In this document: in pieces, positions 16,321 through 51,155 of the stretch
Numbering within the stretch: position 1 is the first letter of the stretch
How the letters are laid out: every line of letters starts with the position of its first letter
Virus record (IMG/VR): IMGVR_UViG_3300045970_000382
Location: 92,224 to 156,223 of that record
Strand: one strand, 5' to 3'
Source of the DNA: a virus
DNA length: 64,000 nucleotides
The notes under the pieces: generated by a model
The model's input: the letters and a program-made list of their open reading frames with translations, nothing else
Told to the model about the DNA's origin: nothing
The model's database searches: none
Made by a program: the position numbers and the translations under genes

Positions 16321-17055
16321 TTAATCATTAAATTCTACTACACGATTCATTAAAGCAACATATACTCTTGATTCTAATAAATTTTTGTAAAAATTAGCCA
16401 GTCTTTTAAATTCAGTTTCTTTAGCTACTTTATAAGTTAGATATGCTTCTTGTTCTGTTTTGTAAGAACCAAGATATTTATATTTTCCTTTAATACTACA
16501 TTGAGCTATATATGGATTTATATAACGTTCATCATAAGTAACTCCAATACGAAATTCACCTCTATTAGCATTACATTTTTCTAAAACATTATTTATCTCT
16601 TGTGGTACTAAACAACATGTTTCTGGTGAATAGATTTTATTACCTTTAAATAATATATCTTTATCCAATTGCCAATTTAAATCTGAAATCATCATTAGTA
16701 AATAATCGTGACAAAAATTTTGAAAGTTCCACCATCTTTCACAAACAATACATCCAATATAAGATTGTTGTCTTGATTGAGTTTCTAAATCATAACACCT
16801 TCGTAACATTTGAAACCAAACCATATAAATTCTTGGATGTGATGTACGAGAATAATTTCCTACGCCAATATAACCAATTCCAGAAATACTAGGATGATTT
16901 GGATTTTTAACATGACCTCCTCTTAAATTACTTGCTTGACAAATTATTTCAAATCCATTTTCAAATCTAACTTTCACATTTCTTGAATCTATAAATTCTA
17001 TAACAGTACAAGATCCATAATTATCCGTTTTAAAAACATCTCCAATTTTAATCAT
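16321..17055 (-). CDS. HNH-like/AP2 homing endonuclease, family copy 4
   Basis: Same motifs as copy 1. Confidence 0.8.
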   Translation of the reverse strand: MIKIGDVFKTDNYGSCTVIEFIDSRNVKVRFENGFEIICQASNLRGGHVKNPNHPSISGIGYIGVGNYSRTSHPRIYMVWFQMLRRCYDLETQSRQQSYIGCIVCERWWNFQNFCHDYLLMMISDLNWQLDKDILFKGNKIYSPETCCLVPQEINNVLEKCNANRGEFRIGVTYDERYINPYIAQCSIKGKYKYLGSYKTEQEAYLTYKVAKETEFKRLANFYKNLLESRVYVALMNRVVEFND

Positions 17056-21741: not shown

Positions 21742-21840
21742 TGTGTTTTAAGCGTGTTTAAATTTCAACGGTTATCAGTGCATAGCTATGTTTAAAACTA
21801 AGCTTAAAACGCATTTTTAGTGGTTATTTAACGGGATTTT
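21742..21840. repeat. ~100-bp phased T-tract element, copy B
   Basis: TGTGTTTTAAGC...CTAAGCTTAAA...TATTT..AC.GG aligns with copy C. Confidence 0.6.
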
Positions 21841-22574
21841 CAGTCATCAATATCGACTACGCGATTCATTAGTATTGTATATATTTCAGGATCTAAATCA
21901 TCTTTAAATAAATTACCTAACCTTTTAAATTCAGCTTCTTTAGCTGCTTTATAGGCTAGCCTAGCTTCTTCTTCTGTTTTGTAACTACCAAGGTACTTTA
22001 ATTTTCCTTCAACGTTACAAGCAGCTTTGTATGGATTTGTTTTACTACCAGAAGGAGAAACTCCAATACGAAATTCACCTCTACTAGCATCACTTTTTTC
22101 TAAAACAGTGTTTATCTGAGGTGGAACTAAGCAACAAGTTTCTGGTGAATATAGCTTGTTTCCTTTAATACGAAGATCTTTGTCTATTTGCCAAAATAAA
22201 GCAGATCCAAACATTGATAAGTAATCAGGAGCAAAATTCTGAAAATTCCACCAACGTTCACATACAGTACAAGCACTATAAGTAGGCCATACACCTCTAA
22301 TAGTTTCATTATAACATCTTCGTAACATCTGAATCCAACAATTATAAATTCTTGGATATAATTTACAAGAATAATTTCCAACTCCAATAAATGCAATACC
22401 ATAAATAATTGGATGATTTAGATTCTTAACCTGACCATTTCTTAAAGCGCCAGCATTACAAATTTTTTCAGTCCCATCTTTAAATCTAATTTTTACATTG
22501 TTATAATCTATATATTCCATAACAGTGCAATTACCAGATTTATTTGTTTTGAATACATCACCTATTTTAATCAT
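21840..22574 (-). CDS. HNH-like/AP2 homing endonuclease, family copy 5
   Basis: Same motifs as copy 1. Confidence 0.8.
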   Translation of the reverse strand: MIKIGDVFKTNKSGNCTVMEYIDYNNVKIRFKDGTEKICNAGALRNGQVKNLNHPIIYGIAFIGVGNYSCKLYPRIYNCWIQMLRRCYNETIRGVWPTYSACTVCERWWNFQNFAPDYLSMFGSALFWQIDKDLRIKGNKLYSPETCCLVPPQINTVLEKSDASRGEFRIGVSPSGSKTNPYKAACNVEGKLKYLGSYKTEEEARLAYKAAKEAEFKRLGNLFKDDLDPEIYTILMNRVVDIDD

Positions 22575-32281: not shown

Positions 32282-32380
32282 TGTGTTTTAAGCACTGTTT
32301 TATTAACTTATGTCAGTATATCAAGCCAGTTGCTTTCTAAGCTTAAACAGCGTTTTTGGCGGCTATTTTAACAGGGTTTT
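32282..32380. repeat. ~100-bp phased T-tract element, copy C
   Basis: Aligns with copy B. Confidence 0.6.
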
Positions 32381-33113
32381 AGTCGTTTGGTTCGACCACA
32401 TAATTTATTAAAGCTAAATACACTTTTAGATCTAACTGATCTTTATAAAAGTTTGCTAATCTTCTAATTTCAGCTTCTTTAGATACTTTATAAGCTAGAT
32501 ATGCTTCTTGTTCTGTTTTGTAATAACCAAGATATTTATTTTTTCCTTTAATACTACATCGAGCTTGATATGGATTTGGTTTACCTTCATAATAAGTAAC
32601 TCCAATACAACATTCACCTCTATTAGCATCACGTTTTATTAAAAGTTTATTTATTTCTTGTGGAAGTAAACAACATGTTTCTGGTGAATATATCTCATTA
32701 TGTTTAAAAAGTATATCTTTATCTAGTTGCCAATCTAAATCTGATCCAAACATTTGTAAATAATCATGAGCAAAGTTTTGAAAATTCCACCATCTTTCAC
32801 AAACAGCACAACCAATATAAGAAGGTTGTTTTAATTGAGTATCTTCGTTATAACATCTTCCTAGCATAGACTTCCAACACTTATAAATTCTTAAATGTGT
32901 TTTAGGAAAATAAATTCCAATTCCAATAAAACCTATATTACAAACACTAGGATGATTTGGATTTTTAACTAGACCATTTCTTAATTGGCTTGCTTGACAA
33001 GTTGTTTCAGTCCCATCATCAAATCTGACTCTTACATCATTACAATCTATATACTTTATAACAATACAAGAACCAGAACTATTCGTTTCAAATCTGTCAC
33101 CTACCTTAATCAT
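32379..33113 (-). CDS. HNH-like/AP2 homing endonuclease, family copy 6
   Basis: Same motifs as copy 1. Confidence 0.8.
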   Translation of the reverse strand: MIKVGDRFETNSSGSCIVIKYIDCNDVRVRFDDGTETTCQASQLRNGLVKNPNHPSVCNIGFIGIGIYFPKTHLRIYKCWKSMLGRCYNEDTQLKQPSYIGCAVCERWWNFQNFAHDYLQMFGSDLDWQLDKDILFKHNEIYSPETCCLLPQEINKLLIKRDANRGECCIGVTYYEGKPNPYQARCSIKGKNKYLGYYKTEQEAYLAYKVSKEAEIRRLANFYKDQLDLKVYLALINYVVEPND

Positions 33114-33380
33114 TTTTTACCTATAAAACCTGAACAATGTTAAAATGAAAGCTTATTGTTTCTACAATAAACATTCTATGATTCATGAAAAGTTTAGTCT
33201 TAGGATCCCAAACAGAAGTCAAATTAAGAGTATCAGTTTTATTCTTTATATCACGAAGTATCTCATGGTAAGATACTTTATCAATGTATATGTAGAATTT
33301 TATATCTGTTTGGTTTGGATTGTTTTTTAATACTCTAGCTGTATCAGCACAAATCCTATTATAAAGATCATAAAATGTTA

Positions 33381-35009
33381 TCATAATAGTGAGAAAGAAG
33401 ATATTACAGCTGGAGTATTACTATCAAAACCAACAACATCTAACATATTGCTATCTAATGGGTCTGCTATTGTAAATCCATTTGATTCCATAGCAGTAAC
33501 AATTAATTTAGCATTAGGTTTATTCATAATTGTGCGGTATTTCTTAAGTAGCGTACTAGGATGTGATCCCTGATTTACTTCATTATCAGTATAACAAACA
33601 AATACATCCACATCCAGTTTATTGTCTATAGCGTATTCAAACATCAACCCTATATTGGTAGATCCAAAACTGGTATTATTTAATACATCAGTAACTTCTT
33701 TAAGACTCATAGTCTCATTTATAGCTAAAGGTTGTATCACGTTATGAAATCCAAGAATATAACATTTAGGTTCTGCTTTAATGGTAGTCATGGCAAGAAC
33801 AGCAGAAGCAACTCTTGGAGTAAATCCTGGAATACCACCAATATTGTTCCATGACATGGATGCCGACACATCTATACATAGTAAGTATTTTTTATTTGTG
33901 GGTTTAATATTTTCAAAGGCCATATAAAATGCTTTTTCAAGAGCAGTAACAATTCTATTTTCAGGATTCCAAATTAAGTTACCTTTTAAACCTCTACCTG
34001 ATTTATAGATATGGTAAGCCATTAAAATTTGTATAGGATGTTGACGAGAACGTTTAAGTTCTTCTTCATTGGTAATTCTACCAATAATATAATCCACATT
34101 ATCAGATAAAGGTTTTATATAACCATTAGCAGTAAGAACACCTAAATTACGCATCATGGCATCATACGGACTGTTTTTGATTAAAGAAGCCCAAATTTCT
34201 GGAATCTTCAACCAATCAGTAGGAATCATCTCCCTAGTTAAACCATAGCAATCAATAGCTTCTTTCTTTTCAGAAATAGTTGTTAGATGGTCATACTGAA
34301 ACGCTAGTTCATGTCCCACTAATATTCGTAATTCTTTATTAGCGCAATTTAGTTGGAAAGGTTTTTTAACAGCCCATGCAAAAAGGGTATTAATATCTTT
34401 GTTATCAGTCTTTGGTTTACAAAGACGAAGTACGTCTCGATGTGACCAACCATTTCTTGATTGGTATTTAACCAGTTGATAGGCTAATTTTGAAACATCT
34501 AAATCCAAATACCAGTTTTTAAGAGCATCAGAAAATAGTCTACCCCGACCACGGAAGTATTTAGAGTATTCAACAAAAGCAAACAAATGAGTTCCAATTC
34601 TACAAACCTCATTTAGTTTAGATAGTGCATATTTTCTTGTTTCTTTATTATCAACACTACCAGCATAAGCAAGAGCAAATATACAAGTTTCGTTTTTAAG
34701 ACAACGTCCTTCAGTTGAAATGTTGACAATAAGATCAATAGTTTCAATAGGATGTTTGAAGAGAGCTTTGTCTAAATCACTTACATTGTCTTTTGTAAGC
34801 TTTTTTTCTTTGACATAGTAGGTTCCGCCAGTTGTACCAAGAATAAGAAACCGTTCTACTTGTTTAAGTAATGGAGTTTCAAATATAAACCCACTTGTGT
34901 TATTTTCTACCATATCTGTACGACCAGCAATAGGTCTATCTACAGGTTGGTCGCCAACTATTTTTTTATGGGGGACGTGCTGCTCAAATTTGAAGGCCAT
35001 AATTTTCAT
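33381..35009 (-). CDS. rsr: Ro60/TROVE ribonucleoprotein (Rsr ortholog)
   Basis: RFLILGT.GGTYY, RIGTHLF, KYQSRNGWSHRDVLRL, AMMRNLG, HP; vWA MIDAS DVSASM and TDNE; DVVGFDS. Confidence 0.95.
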   Translation of the reverse strand: MKIMAFKFEQHVPHKKIVGDQPVDRPIAGRTDMVENNTSGFIFETPLLKQVERFLILGTTGGTYYVKEKKLTKDNVSDLDKALFKHPIETIDLIVNISTEGRCLKNETCIFALAYAGSVDNKETRKYALSKLNEVCRIGTHLFAFVEYSKYFRGRGRLFSDALKNWYLDLDVSKLAYQLVKYQSRNGWSHRDVLRLCKPKTDNKDINTLFAWAVKKPFQLNCANKELRILVGHELAFQYDHLTTISEKKEAIDCYGLTREMIPTDWLKIPEIWASLIKNSPYDAMMRNLGVLTANGYIKPLSDNVDYIIGRITNEEELKRSRQHPIQILMAYHIYKSGRGLKGNLIWNPENRIVTALEKAFYMAFENIKPTNKKYLLCIDVSASMSWNNIGGIPGFTPRVASAVLAMTTIKAEPKCYILGFHNVIQPLAINETMSLKEVTDVLNNTSFGSTNIGLMFEYAIDNKLDVDVFVCYTDNEVNQGSHPSTLLKKYRTIMNKPNAKLIVTAMESNGFTIADPLDSNMLDVVGFDSNTPAVISSFSLL

Positions 35010-35029
35010 TCCTTAATAGGATAAGATAA

Positions 35030-35284
35030 AAAGACCGTCCTTCCTACATTCCCATAGTTCACGGATCGGACTTATTTACTTAAGGTAATATTTTTTCCTT
35101 TGTAAGGTTTAAAGAATATGATACCTTCTCAGCCAGTCATGCCCGTCTACTCACACTTCAGTAGCAGAACACTGTTAGTAGAGCATATACCTCACCTTGA
35201 CAGTAACAAGGGCTACATTTGTTTTGCTGTAGCTTACATAGGTTTCTAAACCATTAGCCGTCTAACGCTCAGGCAGCGGGAATA
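35030..35284 (-). ncRNA. Candidate ~250-nt multibranch structured RNA / Ro60 leader
   Basis: At least 6 hairpins (GCUACA/UGUAGC, CCUUG/CAAGG, UCUACU/AGUAGA, AAGGU/ACCUU) and a closing CUAUUCCC/GGGAAUGUAG helix. Confidence 0.5.
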
Positions 35285-35287
35285 GGG

Positions 35288-35381
35288 TGTTGCTGTTCCG
35301 AATCGAACGGAATAAGCAAAATATAAAAGGAAAGGTGGCAACCTGCCATATTTAAACTTTAGAGTCATTACTCACAGCAAC
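35288..35381 (-). ncRNA. tRNA-like RNA with enlarged non-canonical anticodon arm
   Basis: Acceptor GUUGCUG/CAGCAAC, D arm GAGU/ACUC, T arm UUCCG-UUCGAUU-CGGAA; ~50-nt central arm; followed by ACCC, not CCA. Confidence 0.7.
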
Positions 35382-35384
35382 AAA

Positions 35385-35452
35385 AGAGCAAGTTAAATAA
35401 GATTCGGAGGAGTCATTTTCAAAGAAGTGATAACCAAATCTAATTCAGCTCT
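35385..35452 (-). ncRNA. Y RNA-like hairpin (Y-c)
   Basis: AGAGCUGA...GGUUAUC...CUUGCUCU Ro-binding bulged helix. Confidence 0.8.
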
Positions 35453-35603
35453 AATCCAGTAACAGTTTAGAGTCAATACTGGGAGACTTAAAGTTGCCGT
35501 GTATTTGTCCACACACGGCGTGTGTTCAGGCCAGGTATTTATTTGCGTGAGTTATCGGCACTGACGGTTTCCATCTCACATCCACCAACCACGGAGGATT
35601 TAA

Positions 35604-35669
35604 TTAGAGCAAGTTATTCAAAACTTGGAAGGATCATTATGAGGGATAACCAAGTCTTTTCAGCTCTAA
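35604..35669 (-). ncRNA. Y RNA-like hairpin (Y-b)
   Basis: UUAGAGCUGA-AAAGACUUGG-UUAUC...CCAAGUUUU...CUUGCUCUAA. Confidence 0.82.
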
Positions 35670-35676
35670 ATTGAGC

Positions 35677-35801
35677 GGTTACTGGTGGGACTCGAACCTA
35701 CGACAAACTGTGTTTTGATAATCTAATATCATCAGTTCAAAAGAACAAGATTGAATATTAGTATTTTATGACGGCTGTTCTACCGCTGAACTACAGTAAC
35801 C
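35677..35801 (-). ncRNA. tRNA-His-derived Y RNA (YrlA-like, circularly permuted)
   Basis: 8-bp acceptor GGUUACUG/CAGUAACC, canonical D and T arms; CUUGUUC-UUUU-GAACUGA...AUUAUC in place of the anticodon loop. Confidence 0.8.
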
Positions 35802-35896
35802 ATGTTCTTTTAAATAATTTACTATGGCTTATTAATTAATTATTTATTTAAAAATTAGAACTGTTTTGATTCTTTTAAGCAAAGAACAAAGACAGC

Positions 35897-35962
35897 AAAC
35901 AAGAAGCTTGAATCACAGGGAAAAACGGTGAGAAATAACCTGTGATTACTTTATTTCAGTTT
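35897..35962 (-). ncRNA. Y RNA-like hairpin (Y-a)
   Basis: AAACUGA...AAUCACAGG-UUAUU...CCUGUGAUU...CUUGUUU. Confidence 0.7.
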
Positions 35963-35987
35963 CAATCCGCAGCCACACAAGGCTGAC
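35959..35987 (-). CRISPR. Degenerate solitary CRISPR-repeat-like unit (not an array)
   Basis: GTCAGCCTTGTGTGGCTGCGGATTGAAAC: hairpin plus a 3' 12-mer identical to that of the repeat at 49398. Confidence 0.55.
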
Positions 35988-36015
35988 TTGGTACTGTTTT
36001 TCAGCACCAAAACAT

Positions 36016-36044
36016 ATTATATATTAAGTGAATTGATAAAACAA
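36016..36044 (-). promoter_or_regulatory. Promoter for the Y RNA-Ro60 operon
   Basis: TTGTTT-N17-TATAAT. Confidence 0.6.
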
Positions 36045-36064
36045 GATGCTATTTAAATTATTAA

Positions 36065-36093
36065 GTAGACCATCCAATAATTGGATGGTCTAC
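36065..36093. terminator. 13-bp perfect hairpin insulating the Ro operon from upstream genes
   Basis: GTAGACCATCCAA-TAA-TTGGATGGTCTAC. Confidence 0.6.
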
Positions 36094-36116
36094 AATAAAG
36101 TCTGGATTGCTGAAGT

Positions 36117-36557
36117 TTAAATCGGAGCAGATTCATTTAAGGTTGCGGAAACAGCTAAAGAAACAGCTTGACCTGCAATAACTTGAACTTCAAGTAAGCC
36201 TGCAAGTAGAGCTTCGCCTCCGCCAATAAGGGAATCGGCAATAACGTTGATAGTGGCAGAACCTATGCCTACTGGAGTGATTAAGCCTGATGCATCAACG
36301 GTAACAACAGCTTCATCTGTACTTGAGAAGCTAACATTTTCAACTGAAGCTGGATGGCCGTGGGCATCTACTGAACTTATAAAAATTGTAGCGGTTCTAT
36401 CATCTGGAAGTAATAGTGACATAAAATTAATACCTTTAAAAGTTGCCCCCAAATAATTTATTGAAAGAATAAGCCGGGGGTGTAACTTTTTCTTTCTCTT
36501 TTTTTTACAACAAACTTGATCTTCAATAAAAATCAGGATCGGTTTAAGTATTTTCAT
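36117..36557 (-). CDS. Ig-like (Big_2) domain protein
   Basis: FSSTDEAVVTVDASGLITPVGIGSATI; true start may be internal (MSLLLPDD). Confidence 0.7.
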   Translation of the reverse strand: MKILKPILIFIEDQVCCKKKRKKKLHPRLILSINYLGATFKGINFMSLLLPDDRTATIFISSVDAHGHPASVENVSFSSTDEAVVTVDASGLITPVGIGSATINVIADSLIGGGEALLAGLLEVQVIAGQAVSLAVSATLNESAPI

Positions 36558-37270
36558 TTTTATTCCTTTTATTCTCTAACGAGGATAGATTTATTTTTTG
36601 GTCTCCATCAAAAAAATGATCTAGACCTAAACGTTTACAATGAATCAGTGCATAAGAATATAAGCTATTAGAAGATAGTGGACTATTAGCTACAATCTTT
36701 GAGCTAGAATTAATTTCGTTTTTTGGAGCTAACAAATTAAAGACTATTACATCTCTTTTTTTGCTTTTACGGATTTCTTTAACTATTCTAACTTCTAACA
36801 TCTTTCTGAATTAAAAATTGAATATGAATATGAATATAAATTTAGCATAAAAATAGTGTCTGTACAATGATTCTTTAATATTATTTTTATAAAGATTTTT
36901 TGACTTTCTAATTGAGATATGGTCTAATCTCTTTTTATAATAAACTGGATTTAAAAAGAAAATGAATCTACTTGATTTTAATACTTTTTCAATAGATAAG
37001 TTCACGGATACTGACTGGCAGTTATGTACTGATATTGATGGATTTATTGATTTAGAATGTTTTTTAATACTGGTGAATAAGAAACTTAATATCCAGTTAA
37101 CTGATAGTAATGCTTTTCAAAAATCTATTTTAATTATTTTACAATTAGAACGATTATTGGGTCCTTTTTCTAAAGATCAAGCAATTGCTGTAGCAATCCA
37201 CTATTGTTTGTCCAAATAGCTTTATATGCTATTATAAAAAATATTAATCTTTATTTAGAGGAAAATTGTT

Positions 37271-38533: not shown

Positions 38534-39268
38534 CTAATCATCAAAATCTACCTTGTAATCAACAAGAGCTTGGTACACCCGTGGATCAAGCTCTTCTTTA
38601 TATAAATTTGCCAATCTTTTAATTTCAGCTTCTTTAGCAGGTTTATATACTAGATATGCTTCTTGTTCTGTTTTGAAACTACCAAGATGTTTTGTTTTTC
38701 CTTCAATATTACAACGGGCTTGGTATGGTTTTGTTCTACCTTCACGGTACGTAACTCCAATACGAAGTTCACCTCTGCTAGCATCACTTTTTGTTAAAAG
38801 ATAATTTATTTTAGATGGAACCAAACAACATGTTTCTCTTGAATATATCTTATTTCTTTTAAATAATATATCTTTGTCTAAATGCCAATCCAAATCTGAA
38901 CCCACCATTAGTAAATAATCATGAGCGAAGTTTTGAAAACTATGCCATCTAATATCTACAGTACATCCAATATAAGTAGGATATTTTCTCTGAATATCTT
39001 CGTTATAACATCTTTGTAGCATACAAATCCAAACCATATAAATCCTTTTATGTGATGTATAAGAATAAATTCCAATTCCAATAAAACCAACACCACTAAA
39101 TTTAAGACTTGGATATTTAACATTTCCATTTCTTAAATTTTGGGCTGTACAAATTTTTTCAGCTCCATCTTCAAATCTAATTCTTACATTATTACAATCT
39201 ATATACTCTATTACAACACAAGAACCATAATTATTTGTTTCAAATCTATCACCAACTTTTATTTGCAT
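38534..39268 (-). CDS. HNH-like/AP2 homing endonuclease, family copy 7
   Basis: Same motifs as copy 1. Confidence 0.8.
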   Translation of the reverse strand: MQIKVGDRFETNNYGSCVVIEYIDCNNVRIRFEDGAEKICTAQNLRNGNVKYPSLKFSGVGFIGIGIYSYTSHKRIYMVWICMLQRCYNEDIQRKYPTYIGCTVDIRWHSFQNFAHDYLLMVGSDLDWHLDKDILFKRNKIYSRETCCLVPSKINYLLTKSDASRGELRIGVTYREGRTKPYQARCNIEGKTKHLGSFKTEQEAYLVYKPAKEAEIKRLANLYKEELDPRVYQALVDYKVDFDD

Positions 39269-43219: not shown

Positions 43220-43954
43220 TCAGTCATCAATTTCAACCTCATAATTCATTAAAGCTATATAAACTCTTGGATCTAATAAATCTTTGTAAAAATCAGCCAA
43301 TCGTTTTATTTCAGTCTCTTTAGCTATTTTGTAAGCTTGGTATGCTTCTTCTTGTGTTTTGAAATAACCAAGATTTTTATTTTTTCCTTTAATACTACAT
43401 TGAGACATATAAGGTTTTAATTTACCTTCAATATAAGTTACTCCAATCAATAATTCACCTCTACAAGATTCTTTTTTTATTAAAACCGAGTTTATTTGAG
43501 ATGGAACTAAACAACATTTTTCTGGTGAATAAACCTTATTATGTTTAAAAAGAATATCTTTATCCAGTTGCCAGCCTAAGTCTGAACCATACATTAATAA
43601 ATAATCGTGGACATAATTCTGAAAATTATACCATCTAATATCTACAGTACATCCAATATAGGTAGTATGTTTTAACTGGACATTTTCGTTATAACATCTT
43701 TTTAACATATTTCCCCAACAATTAGAAATTCTTGGATGTGATATTTTTGAATAAATTCCAATTCCAACAAAACCAACACCACAAACAATTGGATGATTTG
43801 GATTTTTAACATTTCCTCTTCTTAAATCACCCGCTCTGCAAGACATTTCATAACCATCTTCAAATCTAACTCTTATATTATTCCAACTAATATACTCTAT
43901 AACAGTACAAAAACCAGATTTAGTTGTTTCAAATCTATCTCCAACTTTTATCAT
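43220..43954 (-). CDS. HNH-like/AP2 homing endonuclease, family copy 8
   Basis: Same motifs as copy 1. Confidence 0.8.
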   Translation of the reverse strand: MIKVGDRFETTKSGFCTVIEYISWNNIRVRFEDGYEMSCRAGDLRRGNVKNPNHPIVCGVGFVGIGIYSKISHPRISNCWGNMLKRCYNENVQLKHTTYIGCTVDIRWYNFQNYVHDYLLMYGSDLGWQLDKDILFKHNKVYSPEKCCLVPSQINSVLIKKESCRGELLIGVTYIEGKLKPYMSQCSIKGKNKNLGYFKTQEEAYQAYKIAKETEIKRLADFYKDLLDPRVYIALMNYEVEIDD

Positions 43955-49397: not shown

Positions 49398-49434
49398 GTA
49401 TCTCCCGGCCTAACCGCCGGGAGCGGATTGAAAC
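49398..49434 (+). CRISPR. Solitary 37-bp CRISPR repeat unit (RNA anti-CRISPR candidate)
   Basis: GTATCTCCCGGCCTAACCGCCGGGAGCGGATTGAAAC: GT start, 8-bp hairpin, ATTGAAAC end; no neighbouring repeat. Confidence 0.8.
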
Positions 49435-49463
49435 ATTTTTATTATTTTTTTAGGATGTCAATT

Positions 49464-49733
49464 ATGAGTAAAATATACAAAGAGTCACCTTTCGGTTCTA
49501 TTTTCAATTCATTTGAGGTATCAGATGAAGGGGAACATAATCTAGAATTGTTTTTTAACGAGGGTGGGGAGTTGGAGTTATGCAGAAAGGCTGAAAAGGC
49601 AGAGGATGGGTCTGTTTATCAGAGTGTAGATCTTCATTTAGAGTTCGAGGAGGTTGTGCGATTGAAAAACTTTTTAATTTTCGCTCTTAAACCCTTCCGG
49701 GAAAACGAAGAAGATCTCTATTCAGAGGATTAG
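49464..49733 (+). CDS. Small acidic hypothetical protein directly after the solitary repeat
   Basis: AGGA RBS then ATG 49464; very Glu/Asp-rich. Confidence 0.6.
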   Translation: MSKIYKESPFGSIFNSFEVSDEGEHNLELFFNEGGELELCRKAEKAEDGSVYQSVDLHLEFEEVVRLKNFLIFALKPFRENEEDLYSED

Positions 49734-50414: not shown

Positions 50415-51155
50415 ATGAAAACTATATCAAGAGGAGATGTTTTTGAAACGAACATATCTGGTTTTTGTACTGTTGTAGAGTATATAGATTCACGAAATGT
50501 GAAAGTTAGATTTGAAGATGGATTTGAAACAATTTGTCAATCTGGTCAATTAAGAAATGGTCAGGTTAAGAATCCAAATAATCCAATTATTTATGGTGTT
50601 GGTTTTATAGGAGTTGGAAATTATTCTCATAAATCACATCCAAGAATTTATTACTGTTGGAGGGACATGATAGGAAGATGTTATCACAAAGTTACTCAAT
50701 TAAAACATCGATCTTATATTGGTTGTACTGTATGTGAAAGATGGTGGAATTTTCAAAATTTTTGTTATGATTACTTGATAATGGTAGGTTCAGATTTAAA
50801 TTATCATTTAGATAAAGATTTATTATTTAAAGGAAATAAGATATATTCACCAGAAACATGTTGCTTAGTTCCACGTCAAGTAAATAACGTTTTAGAAAAA
50901 TGTGATGCTAATAGAGGTGAATGTTGTATTGGAGTTAATTACTATGAAGATAAAATAAATCCATACAAAGCTACTTGTAACGTTGAAGGAAAACAAAAAT
51001 ATCTTGGTATTTACAAAACAGAACAAGAAGCACGACAAGTCTATAAAGTAGCTAAAGAAGCTGAATTTAAAAGACTGGCTAATTTATACAAAGATACATT
51101 AGATTCAAGAGCTTATATAGCTTTAATGAATCGCACGGTTGATGAAGATGATTAG
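50415..51155 (+). CDS. HNH-like/AP2 homing endonuclease, family copy 9
   Basis: Same motifs as copy 1. Confidence 0.8.
   Translation: MKTISRGDVFETNISGFCTVVEYIDSRNVKVRFEDGFETICQSGQLRNGQVKNPNNPIIYGVGFIGVGNYSHKSHPRIYYCWRDMIGRCYHKVTQLKHRSYIGCTVCERWWNFQNFCYDYLIMVGSDLNYHLDKDLLFKGNKIYSPETCCLVPRQVNNVLEKCDANRGECCIGVNYYEDKINPYKATCNVEGKQKYLGIYKTEQEARQVYKVAKEAEFKRLANLYKDTLDSRAYIALMNRTVDEDD

Follow-up and report, generated by a model that had tools for sequence, protein, structure and literature searches.

At the head of a Ro60/Y-RNA locus in an uncultured phage we identified a solitary, repeat-like hairpin, hereafter element A, and we consider the chances about even that it is a minimised mimic of a type I-C CRISPR repeat and, as such, a candidate RNA anti-CRISPR of the Racr type that would occupy the processing nuclease Cas5c. 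Read in this way, it is a known kind of element (a type I-C solitary repeat unit, or Racr) in a new form and an unreported setting, being shortened and carried on a Y-like RNA at a Ro60 locus. The window analysed here is the whole 64,000-nt stretch, bases 92224-156223 of a 156,223-bp IMG/VR record that is estimated to be 100% complete and has a GC content of 32.7%; positions refer to this window throughout, and the features on which the argument rests are collected in Table 1.

Table 1 Positions of element A and its surroundings, of repeat B and of comparable features in other viral loci. Positions are those of the window unless preceded by the label of another locus.
Feature	Position	Strand	Basis or context
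Perfect 12-bp hairpin	36093..36065	minus	After Big_2-domain (Ig-like) gene, ORF 36557..36117
Predicted promoter, TTGTTT-N17-TATAAT	36044..36016	minus	Read by eye; start near 36009
5'-terminal 9-bp hairpin, one G-U pair, AAAAA loop	36010..35988	minus	At predicted transcript start
Element A, 29 nt	35987..35959	minus	Read from window sequence
Element A, 5' overhang GT (GU in RNA)	35987-35986	minus	
Element A, stem CAGCC / GGCTG, perfect 5 bp	35985-35981 with 35974-35970	minus	
Element A, loop TTGTGT (RNA UUGUGU), 6 nt	35980-35975	minus	
Element A, tail CGGATTGAAAC (RNA CGGAUUGAAAC), 11 nt	35969-35959	minus	
Y-a, divergent Y-like module	35962..35897	minus	Alignment, descriptor, weak covariance score
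Long interrupted hairpin, then U-rich run	35896..35860	minus	Fold prediction
Phage Ro60 gene, TROVE and Ro60 vWA domains	35009..33381	minus	Pfam PF05731 2.4e-34, PF25045 1.8e-50
Element B, full 37-nt solitary repeat	49398-49434	plus	Rfam DR9 match, near-identity to array repeat
Solitary I-C repeats ending GCGGATTGAAAC	L138:106-124, L139:3577-3595, L140:793-811, L243:919-934		One each, viruses of 47-68% GC
Y-like modules and tRNA/Y hybrids, gene-free stretch	L123:2480-3720, L126:3035-4000, L127:1970-4000		Related phage Ro60 loci

An earlier note on this DNA had described a CRISPR-repeat-like hairpin fused directly onto a Y RNA, and both the hairpin and its tail are indeed present, but on the minus strand. 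In isolation element A folds with a free energy of -8.9 kcal/mol, and its hairpin (-7.7 kcal/mol) is equalled by only 0.045% of the 18-mers in the genome, while the loosest rule for a stem in the same register is satisfied at 7% of positions. By our own count 15 of its 29 bases are G or C.

Element A is tied by its 3' end to a second, full-length solitary repeat in the same genome, element B. The 12-mer GCGGATTGAAAC, with which element A ends, has exactly two copies, both in the window and in the whole virus record, the other one lying at 49423-49434 on the plus strand, 13.4 kb away and in the opposite orientation; the previously claimed identity between the last 12 nt of the hairpin and the end of the repeat at 49398 was thus recovered at 12 of 12 positions. 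From base composition this 12-mer would be expected 0.0086 times per genome. Among the 50 genome sites with the sequence ATTGAAA[C/G/T], a stable hairpin in register is found at A and B only, and the end of the stem directly before CGGATTGAAAC falls in the same register in A, in B and in canonical 32-nt I-C repeats. Multiplying the expectation for the exact 12-mer (0.0086) by that for a stable in-register hairpin (0.00045 by energy, 0.07 by the loosest rule) gives a joint chance of about 4e-6 to 6e-4, and we therefore regard the relation of element A to B as non-chance. A genome-wide search with the 12-mer and with hairpin plus ATTGAAAC recovered no second repeat at spacer distance from element A and no other hairpin plus ATTGAAAC site except B. 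Element A is accordingly solitary, and it constitutes neither a CRISPR array nor a mini-array, for which at least two repeats and a spacer are needed.

Element B itself has an 8-bp stem, a 6-nt loop and the same 11-nt tail as A, folds in isolation at -16.4 kcal/mol, and is matched by the Rfam family CRISPR-DR9 with 39.4 bits (E 3e-7); the same family scores 15.7 bits against element A (E 3.7), which is not significant by itself. To place B among natural repeats, we scanned a set of genomes in which each prokaryotic species is represented once, looking for GCGGATTGAAAC twice at array spacing, and obtained at least 120 matches. The best among the matches listed was an array repeat identical to B at 36 of 37 positions, in Gammaproteobacteria bacterium 50_400_T64 (MAAS01000031.1). 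This array has 20 repeats and adjoins the genes cas2-cas1-cas4-cas7c-cas8c-cas5c-cas3, a complete type I-C operon in which each cas gene scores above or near its type I-C NCBIfam cut-off. By sequence, then, B is a copy of a type I-C repeat, and because the corresponding array repeat adjoins a complete type I-C operon, Cas5c is the relevant processing nuclease. Element B thereby connects this uncultured phage (156 kb, 33% GC) with hosts whose type I-C repeats belong to one particular family. Solitary repeats of the same I-C family are also carried by unrelated viruses in IMG/VR (L138-L140 and L243); in L138 the tail of the repeat additionally pairs with an upstream anti-tail, so that the whole forms one long palindrome. 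About 20 nt after B an ORF of 92 aa begins with an ATG at 49455 (49455-49733, plus strand) and is without a PHROG match; an acr-like partner role for this ORF is possible and unsupported.

In a canonical I-C repeat, a 7-bp stem closed by a pentaloop is flanked by overhangs of 2 nt on the 5' side and 11 nt on the 3' side (PMC8524198). Compared with the form that we used as a criterion (2-nt overhang, 7-bp stem, 4-5-nt loop, and an 11-nt 3' overhang ending in ...AUUGAAAC), element A agrees in both overhangs and departs in its 5-bp stem and 6-nt loop, which are, respectively, 2-3 bp shorter and 1-2 nt longer than in natural repeats; unlike these repeats it also lies outside an array, without a spacer and without a downstream repeat. 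The 28 natural 32-nt repeats that we aligned, all of them preselected for the 12-mer, have the same 13 invariant bases at the 3' end (CG plus CGGATTGAAAC), and their 5' halves could not be aligned with MAFFT, the stems and loops being variable. In every natural repeat examined the stem was 7-8 bp long, as against 5 bp in element A.

The features in which element A departs from these repeats are nevertheless of a particular kind. What Cas5c recognises is mainly the base of the stem together with the 3' overhang, in which the three nucleotides directly past the cut matter most; the loop and the 5' overhang go unread, and removal of 7 nt from the 5' end of a repeat leaves cleavage at the correct position (PMC8524198). 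Element A keeps the hairpin, the C-G base of the stem and the whole 11-nt 3' tail, and differs from B in the loop and the distal stem. Judged by this published precedent, the features common to A and B are those that Cas5c would read, and the differing features are those that it would ignore; the predicted cut in element A falls between G35970 and C35969. The assignment made in the earlier note, to the hairpins cut by Cas5d/Cas6, therefore agrees as regards Cas5d (Cas5c) with what we found, in that B is 36/37 identical to the repeat of a type I-C array and A retains the published Cas5c determinants. A search of the metagenome collection for arrays with the A-type stem and tail yielded none, only eight single chance matches in GC-rich coding DNA. 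Since element A has neither a significant Rfam match nor an array bearing its stem, it is best described as a derived mimic and not as a copy of a known repeat.

The surroundings of element A have the appearance of a small transcription unit. The perfect 12-bp hairpin that follows the Ig-like gene is a palindrome, matched in Rfam by chance on both strands, and is probably a terminator that isolates the unit behind it. The predicted promoter places the start of transcription 22 nt before element A, close to the distance of about 25 nt given in the earlier note; this promoter was read by eye, however, and the consensus promoter scan did not list it, its -35 hexamer agreeing at 3 of 6 positions. 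A similar motif, TTGTAT-N17-TATAAT, occurs in the related locus L127, where the non-coding stretch upstream of Ro60 opens with it and a tRNA follows. The leader formed by the 5'-terminal hairpin and element A (35959-36014, 56 nt) has a predicted fold of -20.7 kcal/mol with z = -3.6, and none of 200 shuffled sequences folded as well. Downstream, the segment 35801-35900 folds at -16.2 kcal/mol (z = -2.4), and the long interrupted hairpin within it, which is not listed by a terminator scan that allows no bulges, may be an intrinsic terminator according to this fold prediction. If that terminator is real, promoter, element A and Y-a would make up a stand-alone RNA gene of about 160 nt. The order on the minus strand after element A is Y-a, the long hairpin, a tRNA-like RNA, further modules and Ro60.

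Bacteria and phages are known to encode Y RNAs and tRNA-like RNAs next to Ro60 (YrlA family; Chen et al. 2014, PMC4201824), and the locus described here resembles theirs (PMC4201824) in having small structured and tRNA-like RNAs in the orientation of Ro60 and no more than 4 kb upstream of it. Y-a itself lies within 4 kb of Ro60 in the same orientation. The modules in the three nearest Ro60 loci follow a common scheme, which begins with GAGCUGAA, then has an upper stem and GGUUAyC, and continues with a loop, the second strand of that stem and AACUUGCUC. In a difference from the YrlA-family Y RNAs, no module is matched by an Rfam Y-RNA family or by any other family in Rfam. Y-a has a lower helix AAAC/GUUU, a CUGAA motif, an 8-bp upper stem followed by UUAUU, and a CUUG motif; aligned with nine other modules, it keeps CUGAA, GGUUAU and CUUG. 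Its AAAC/GUUU helix takes the place of GAGC/GCUC, which amounts to two replacements of G-C by A-U pairs with both sides changed. Module helices vary by compensatory changes elsewhere as well, for example as GAAC/GUUC in L127:3718-3773.

The first four nucleotides of Y-a are the last four of element A (AAAC), with no spacer between them, and "fused directly", as the junction had been described, is hence an accurate account of it. That AAAC also forms the 5' strand of the Y-a helix, as previously proposed, is favoured by the alignment and by a descriptor of two stems plus motifs, drawn up with Y-a already known, whose matches in the 156-kb genome are Y-a, Y-b and Y-c alone, where a random genome would give 0.05. 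The nine other modules also served to build a covariance model confined to the lower stem, but this model gave Y-a only 5.8 bits (E 0.46) and a different 3' partner. Weighing these results, we conclude from the sequence comparisons that Y-a appears to be a genuine third copy of the Y-like module, though a divergent one. We infer that the modules would bind Ro60, on the strength of their position and of the precedent of Y RNAs with Ro60 in bacteria and phages (PMC4201824).

Two further parts of the non-coding stretch have features of their own. The tRNA-like RNA (35677-35800, minus strand) is matched by the Rfam tRNA family with 39.7 bits and has intact acceptor, D and T arms, but a 59-nt insertion replaces the anticodon loop and the RNA is not called by ARAGORN; the insertion (35739..35693) is the third-best match of the module covariance model in the window (13.7 bits), and similar tRNA/Y hybrids are found in L123, L126 and L127. 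Between the last Y-like module and the start codon of Ro60, about 370 nt (35010-35380, minus strand) are richer in G+C and apparently structured, non-coding and without a match to any Rfam family. We know of no Y RNA described so far in which a CRISPR repeat forms the 5' end.

We then compared the locus with other viral Ro60 loci. Querying the IMG/VR viral contigs with an alignment recovered 80 loci, and a query with a single Ro60 protein recovered none. In the three nearest loci, whose Ro60 proteins are 51-58% identical in amino acid sequence, long gene-free stretches lie upstream of Ro60, and each contains two to about seven modules of the same scheme together with tRNA-like hybrids; ordinary tRNAs are also present in the stretches of L126 and L127. 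A ATTGAAAC-type hairpin was absent from all three. When 85 other phage Ro60 loci, 610 kb in total, were searched for [A/G]TTG[A/C]AA[C/G] accompanied in register by a stable hairpin, ten scattered matches came up, none of them a repeat-like hairpin in a transcript leader. The earlier note had itself listed a lack of the hairpin in homologous Ro60 loci as one half of what would refute its reading, and this lack is what the 85 other loci show; nothing indicates that the Y-RNA operon needs a Cas nuclease to mature, the three closest and 80 further Ro60 loci having like arrays without the hairpin. The absence of the hairpin from other Ro60 loci points to a lineage-specific addition that is not part of Ro60/Y-RNA biology, and it is also what would be expected of a host-specific addition in an arms race.

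Other searches returned little that resembles element A. Nucleotide patterns for the element gave no match in viral contigs, and the junction of the tail with CTGAA gave 25 matches, none related, which were mostly chance or coding matches and included one unrelated solitary repeat and one array. A phage BLAST of the region 33000-37000 had no match; a second contig with an identical Ro60 exists. The virus record contains no match to Cas5c, Cas7c or Cas6 models, and in a phage lacking cas5c, cas7c and cas6 any Cas partner of element A must be supplied by the host. The alternative of repeats that serve a system carried by the phage itself is thereby ruled out. We rejected the genome of MAAS01000031.1 as a host as unsafe, its GC content being about 51% against 32.7% for the phage and its spacers missing the phage, and we regard it instead as a genome in which this repeat family is present. 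Among about 2,100 spacers from the 120 array loci listed, none had a credible protospacer in the phage, the best match being 18 of 19 nt.

Viral solitary repeat units are an established class whose members often follow closely on a promoter. They have given rise to RNA anti-CRISPRs, which trap Cas proteins in aberrant complexes; one of these, the type I-C representative RacrIC1, has been experimentally validated and blocks I-C immunity (Camara-Wilpert et al. 2023, Nature, PMC10651486). If element A acts similarly, the Cas5c of the host would recognise its stem-loop, the C-G base of the stem and the 11-nt tail, would bind it and probably cut it after G35970, and would stay on the 5' handle CGGAUUGAAAC. 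Where a spacer and a further repeat would otherwise follow, this handle would be continued by a structured Y-like RNA, on which the Cascade backbone could not be assembled, and the product would be a dead-end complex of Cas5c, possibly with a few Cas7 subunits, that competes with the pre-crRNA and crRNA of the host. The full-length repeat B, in the early-gene region, would act in the same way. The transcription of element A, its binding and cleavage by Cas5c and an inhibition of CRISPR immunity are all inferred parts of this scheme. Part of the reading given in the earlier note, an RNA anti-CRISPR tethering Cas to Ro60, hence survives, in that an RNA anti-CRISPR fits the known Racr class including its I-C member, whereas nothing indicates a tether between Cas and Ro60.

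Element A shares with RacrIC1 and other solitary repeat units a single repeat-like hairpin with a handle in a virus without cas5c, cas7c and cas6, and with RacrIC1 also the CRISPR type (I-C) and the processing enzyme (Cas5c); the phage studied here additionally has the full-length solitary repeat B. The layout is likewise that of a Racr, with a predicted promoter, a repeat, a short structured RNA that is not a spacer and a terminator-like hairpin, although the promoter, sought within about 250 bp upstream under the Racr criterion, is for element A one read by eye only. Against this, element A has 29 nt and a 5-bp stem, as against 32-37 nt and a stem of 7-8 bp, its likeness to a known repeat is confined to the architecture and the 12-nt tail, and it is joined seamlessly to the Y-like RNA that heads a Ro60 locus; no acr gene was recognised next to it. 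Two further points speak against a decoy: pairing of AAAC in the Y-a helix would leave the handle partly not single-stranded, and the genome with the best-matching array has a GC content of about 51% against 32.7% for the phage, with no phage match among the roughly 2,100 spacers. Should element A be active, a repeat of about 29 nt with a 5-bp stem and a handle would suffice for Cas5c and would represent a minimal decoy, the second and differently built one in a phage that already carries a full-length one, and its place at the head of a Ro60/Y-RNA unit would join two poorly understood phage RNA systems.

Several other readings account for parts of these observations. Element A may be a decaying repeat fragment, either a partial duplicate of B or a recombinant from a host array, that now lies functionless in the leader of a Y RNA. 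Its stem, shorter than in any natural repeat seen, its insignificant Rfam score and its absence from all other Ro60 loci would be expected of such a relic, but exactly the Cas5c determinants survive, the GU overhang and the C-G base beneath a stem of 5 perfect pairs among them, and its 15 G+C of 29 bases persist in a 32.7% GC genome where drift should erode them. The element also sits 22 nt after the predicted promoter start, as functional solitary repeats often do (PMC10651486), and the 3' strand of the Y-a helix has both of the changes needed to pair with the AAAC of the repeat; we therefore consider a relic unlikely. A chance likeness, in which the two 5' hairpins simply stabilise the transcript or act in transcription independently of Cas, would agree with the frequency of stable 5' hairpins in small RNAs, with the z of -3.6 for the 56-nt leader and with the start of the Y module itself, ...CUGAA, which resembles the junction. 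This reading is very unlikely in view of the joint chance of about 4e-6 to 6e-4 for the 12-mer and stable hairpin, and of the fact that the only bona fide repeat of the phage ends in the same 12-mer.

The remaining readings give the downstream RNA a role. Cleavage by Cas5c could create the 5' end of Y-a, in maturation or sensing, or the Cas5c-bound handle could link Cas subunits to Ro60. The overlap of the repeat tail with the lower helix of Y-a by 4 nt without a spacer, the two G-C to A-U changes that preserve the helix while matching the end of the repeat, and the recovery of Y-a along with Y-b and Y-c by one two-stem descriptor all accord with such a coupling. It is made rather improbable by the 85 other Ro60 loci, whose Y-RNA arrays manage without the hairpin, by the covariance score of Y-a (only 5.8 bits), by the two positions at which its 5' strand differs from the strand presumed to be contacted by Ro60 (PMC4201824), and by the mutual exclusion of Cas5c on the handle and pairing of AAAC. 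In its strongest form, a functional fusion, the Cas5c-bound handle on a Ro60-ligand RNA would couple Cascade subunits or pre-crRNA of the host to the Ro60/Y-RNA ribonucleoprotein. The Deinococcus Ro60/Y-RNA particle tethers Ro60 to an exoribonuclease, and a fusion of this sort, if true, would mean that the phage destroys or senses CRISPR RNA-protein complexes and does not merely soak them up; we regard it as very improbable indeed. A Cracr-type guide, in which the handle and the sequence behind it direct the Cascade of the host to repress cas genes or a CRISPR-guarding toxin, has its precedent in viral crRNA-like regulators, of which type I-C examples exist and which depend on a pseudo-spacer that agrees with a cas or toxin promoter at 9 or more PAM-proximal positions (bioRxiv 10.1101/2024.10.29.618823). 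Element A resembles a Cracr as a phage-borne, repeat-derived RNA with a predicted engagement of Cas, and it supplies a complete 5' handle. The RNA downstream of it, however, is a structured Y-like module. For the 35 nt after element A, neither the cas locus of MAAS01000031.1 nor the flank of its array contains a PAM-flanked seed match, their sole long match is to the phage itself, an 8-bp stem takes up the would-be spacer, and no second repeat or pseudo-repeat follows. For the pseudo-spacer of B, the comparison with the same cas locus gave only a 9-nt AT-rich seed without a PAM. A guide of this type is thus extremely unlikely, and the earlier description of the product as a crRNA whose spacer is a Y RNA was overstated, there being no second repeat and no pseudo-spacer target in the one cas locus compared.

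Among the ORFs flanking A and B, PHROGs and Pfam provided no acr or other annotation apart from HNH endonucleases and an Ig-like domain. The HNH endonuclease ORFs, of 244 and 246 aa (phrog_953, E about 1e-64), lie just downstream of the Ro60 unit (32379-33113, minus strand) and near repeat B (50415-51155, plus strand). Four more ORFs of exactly 244 aa are present in the window (16321-17055, 21840-22574, 38534-39268 and 43220-43954), and the 244-aa ORFs together suggest a homing endonuclease gene family spread through the genome.
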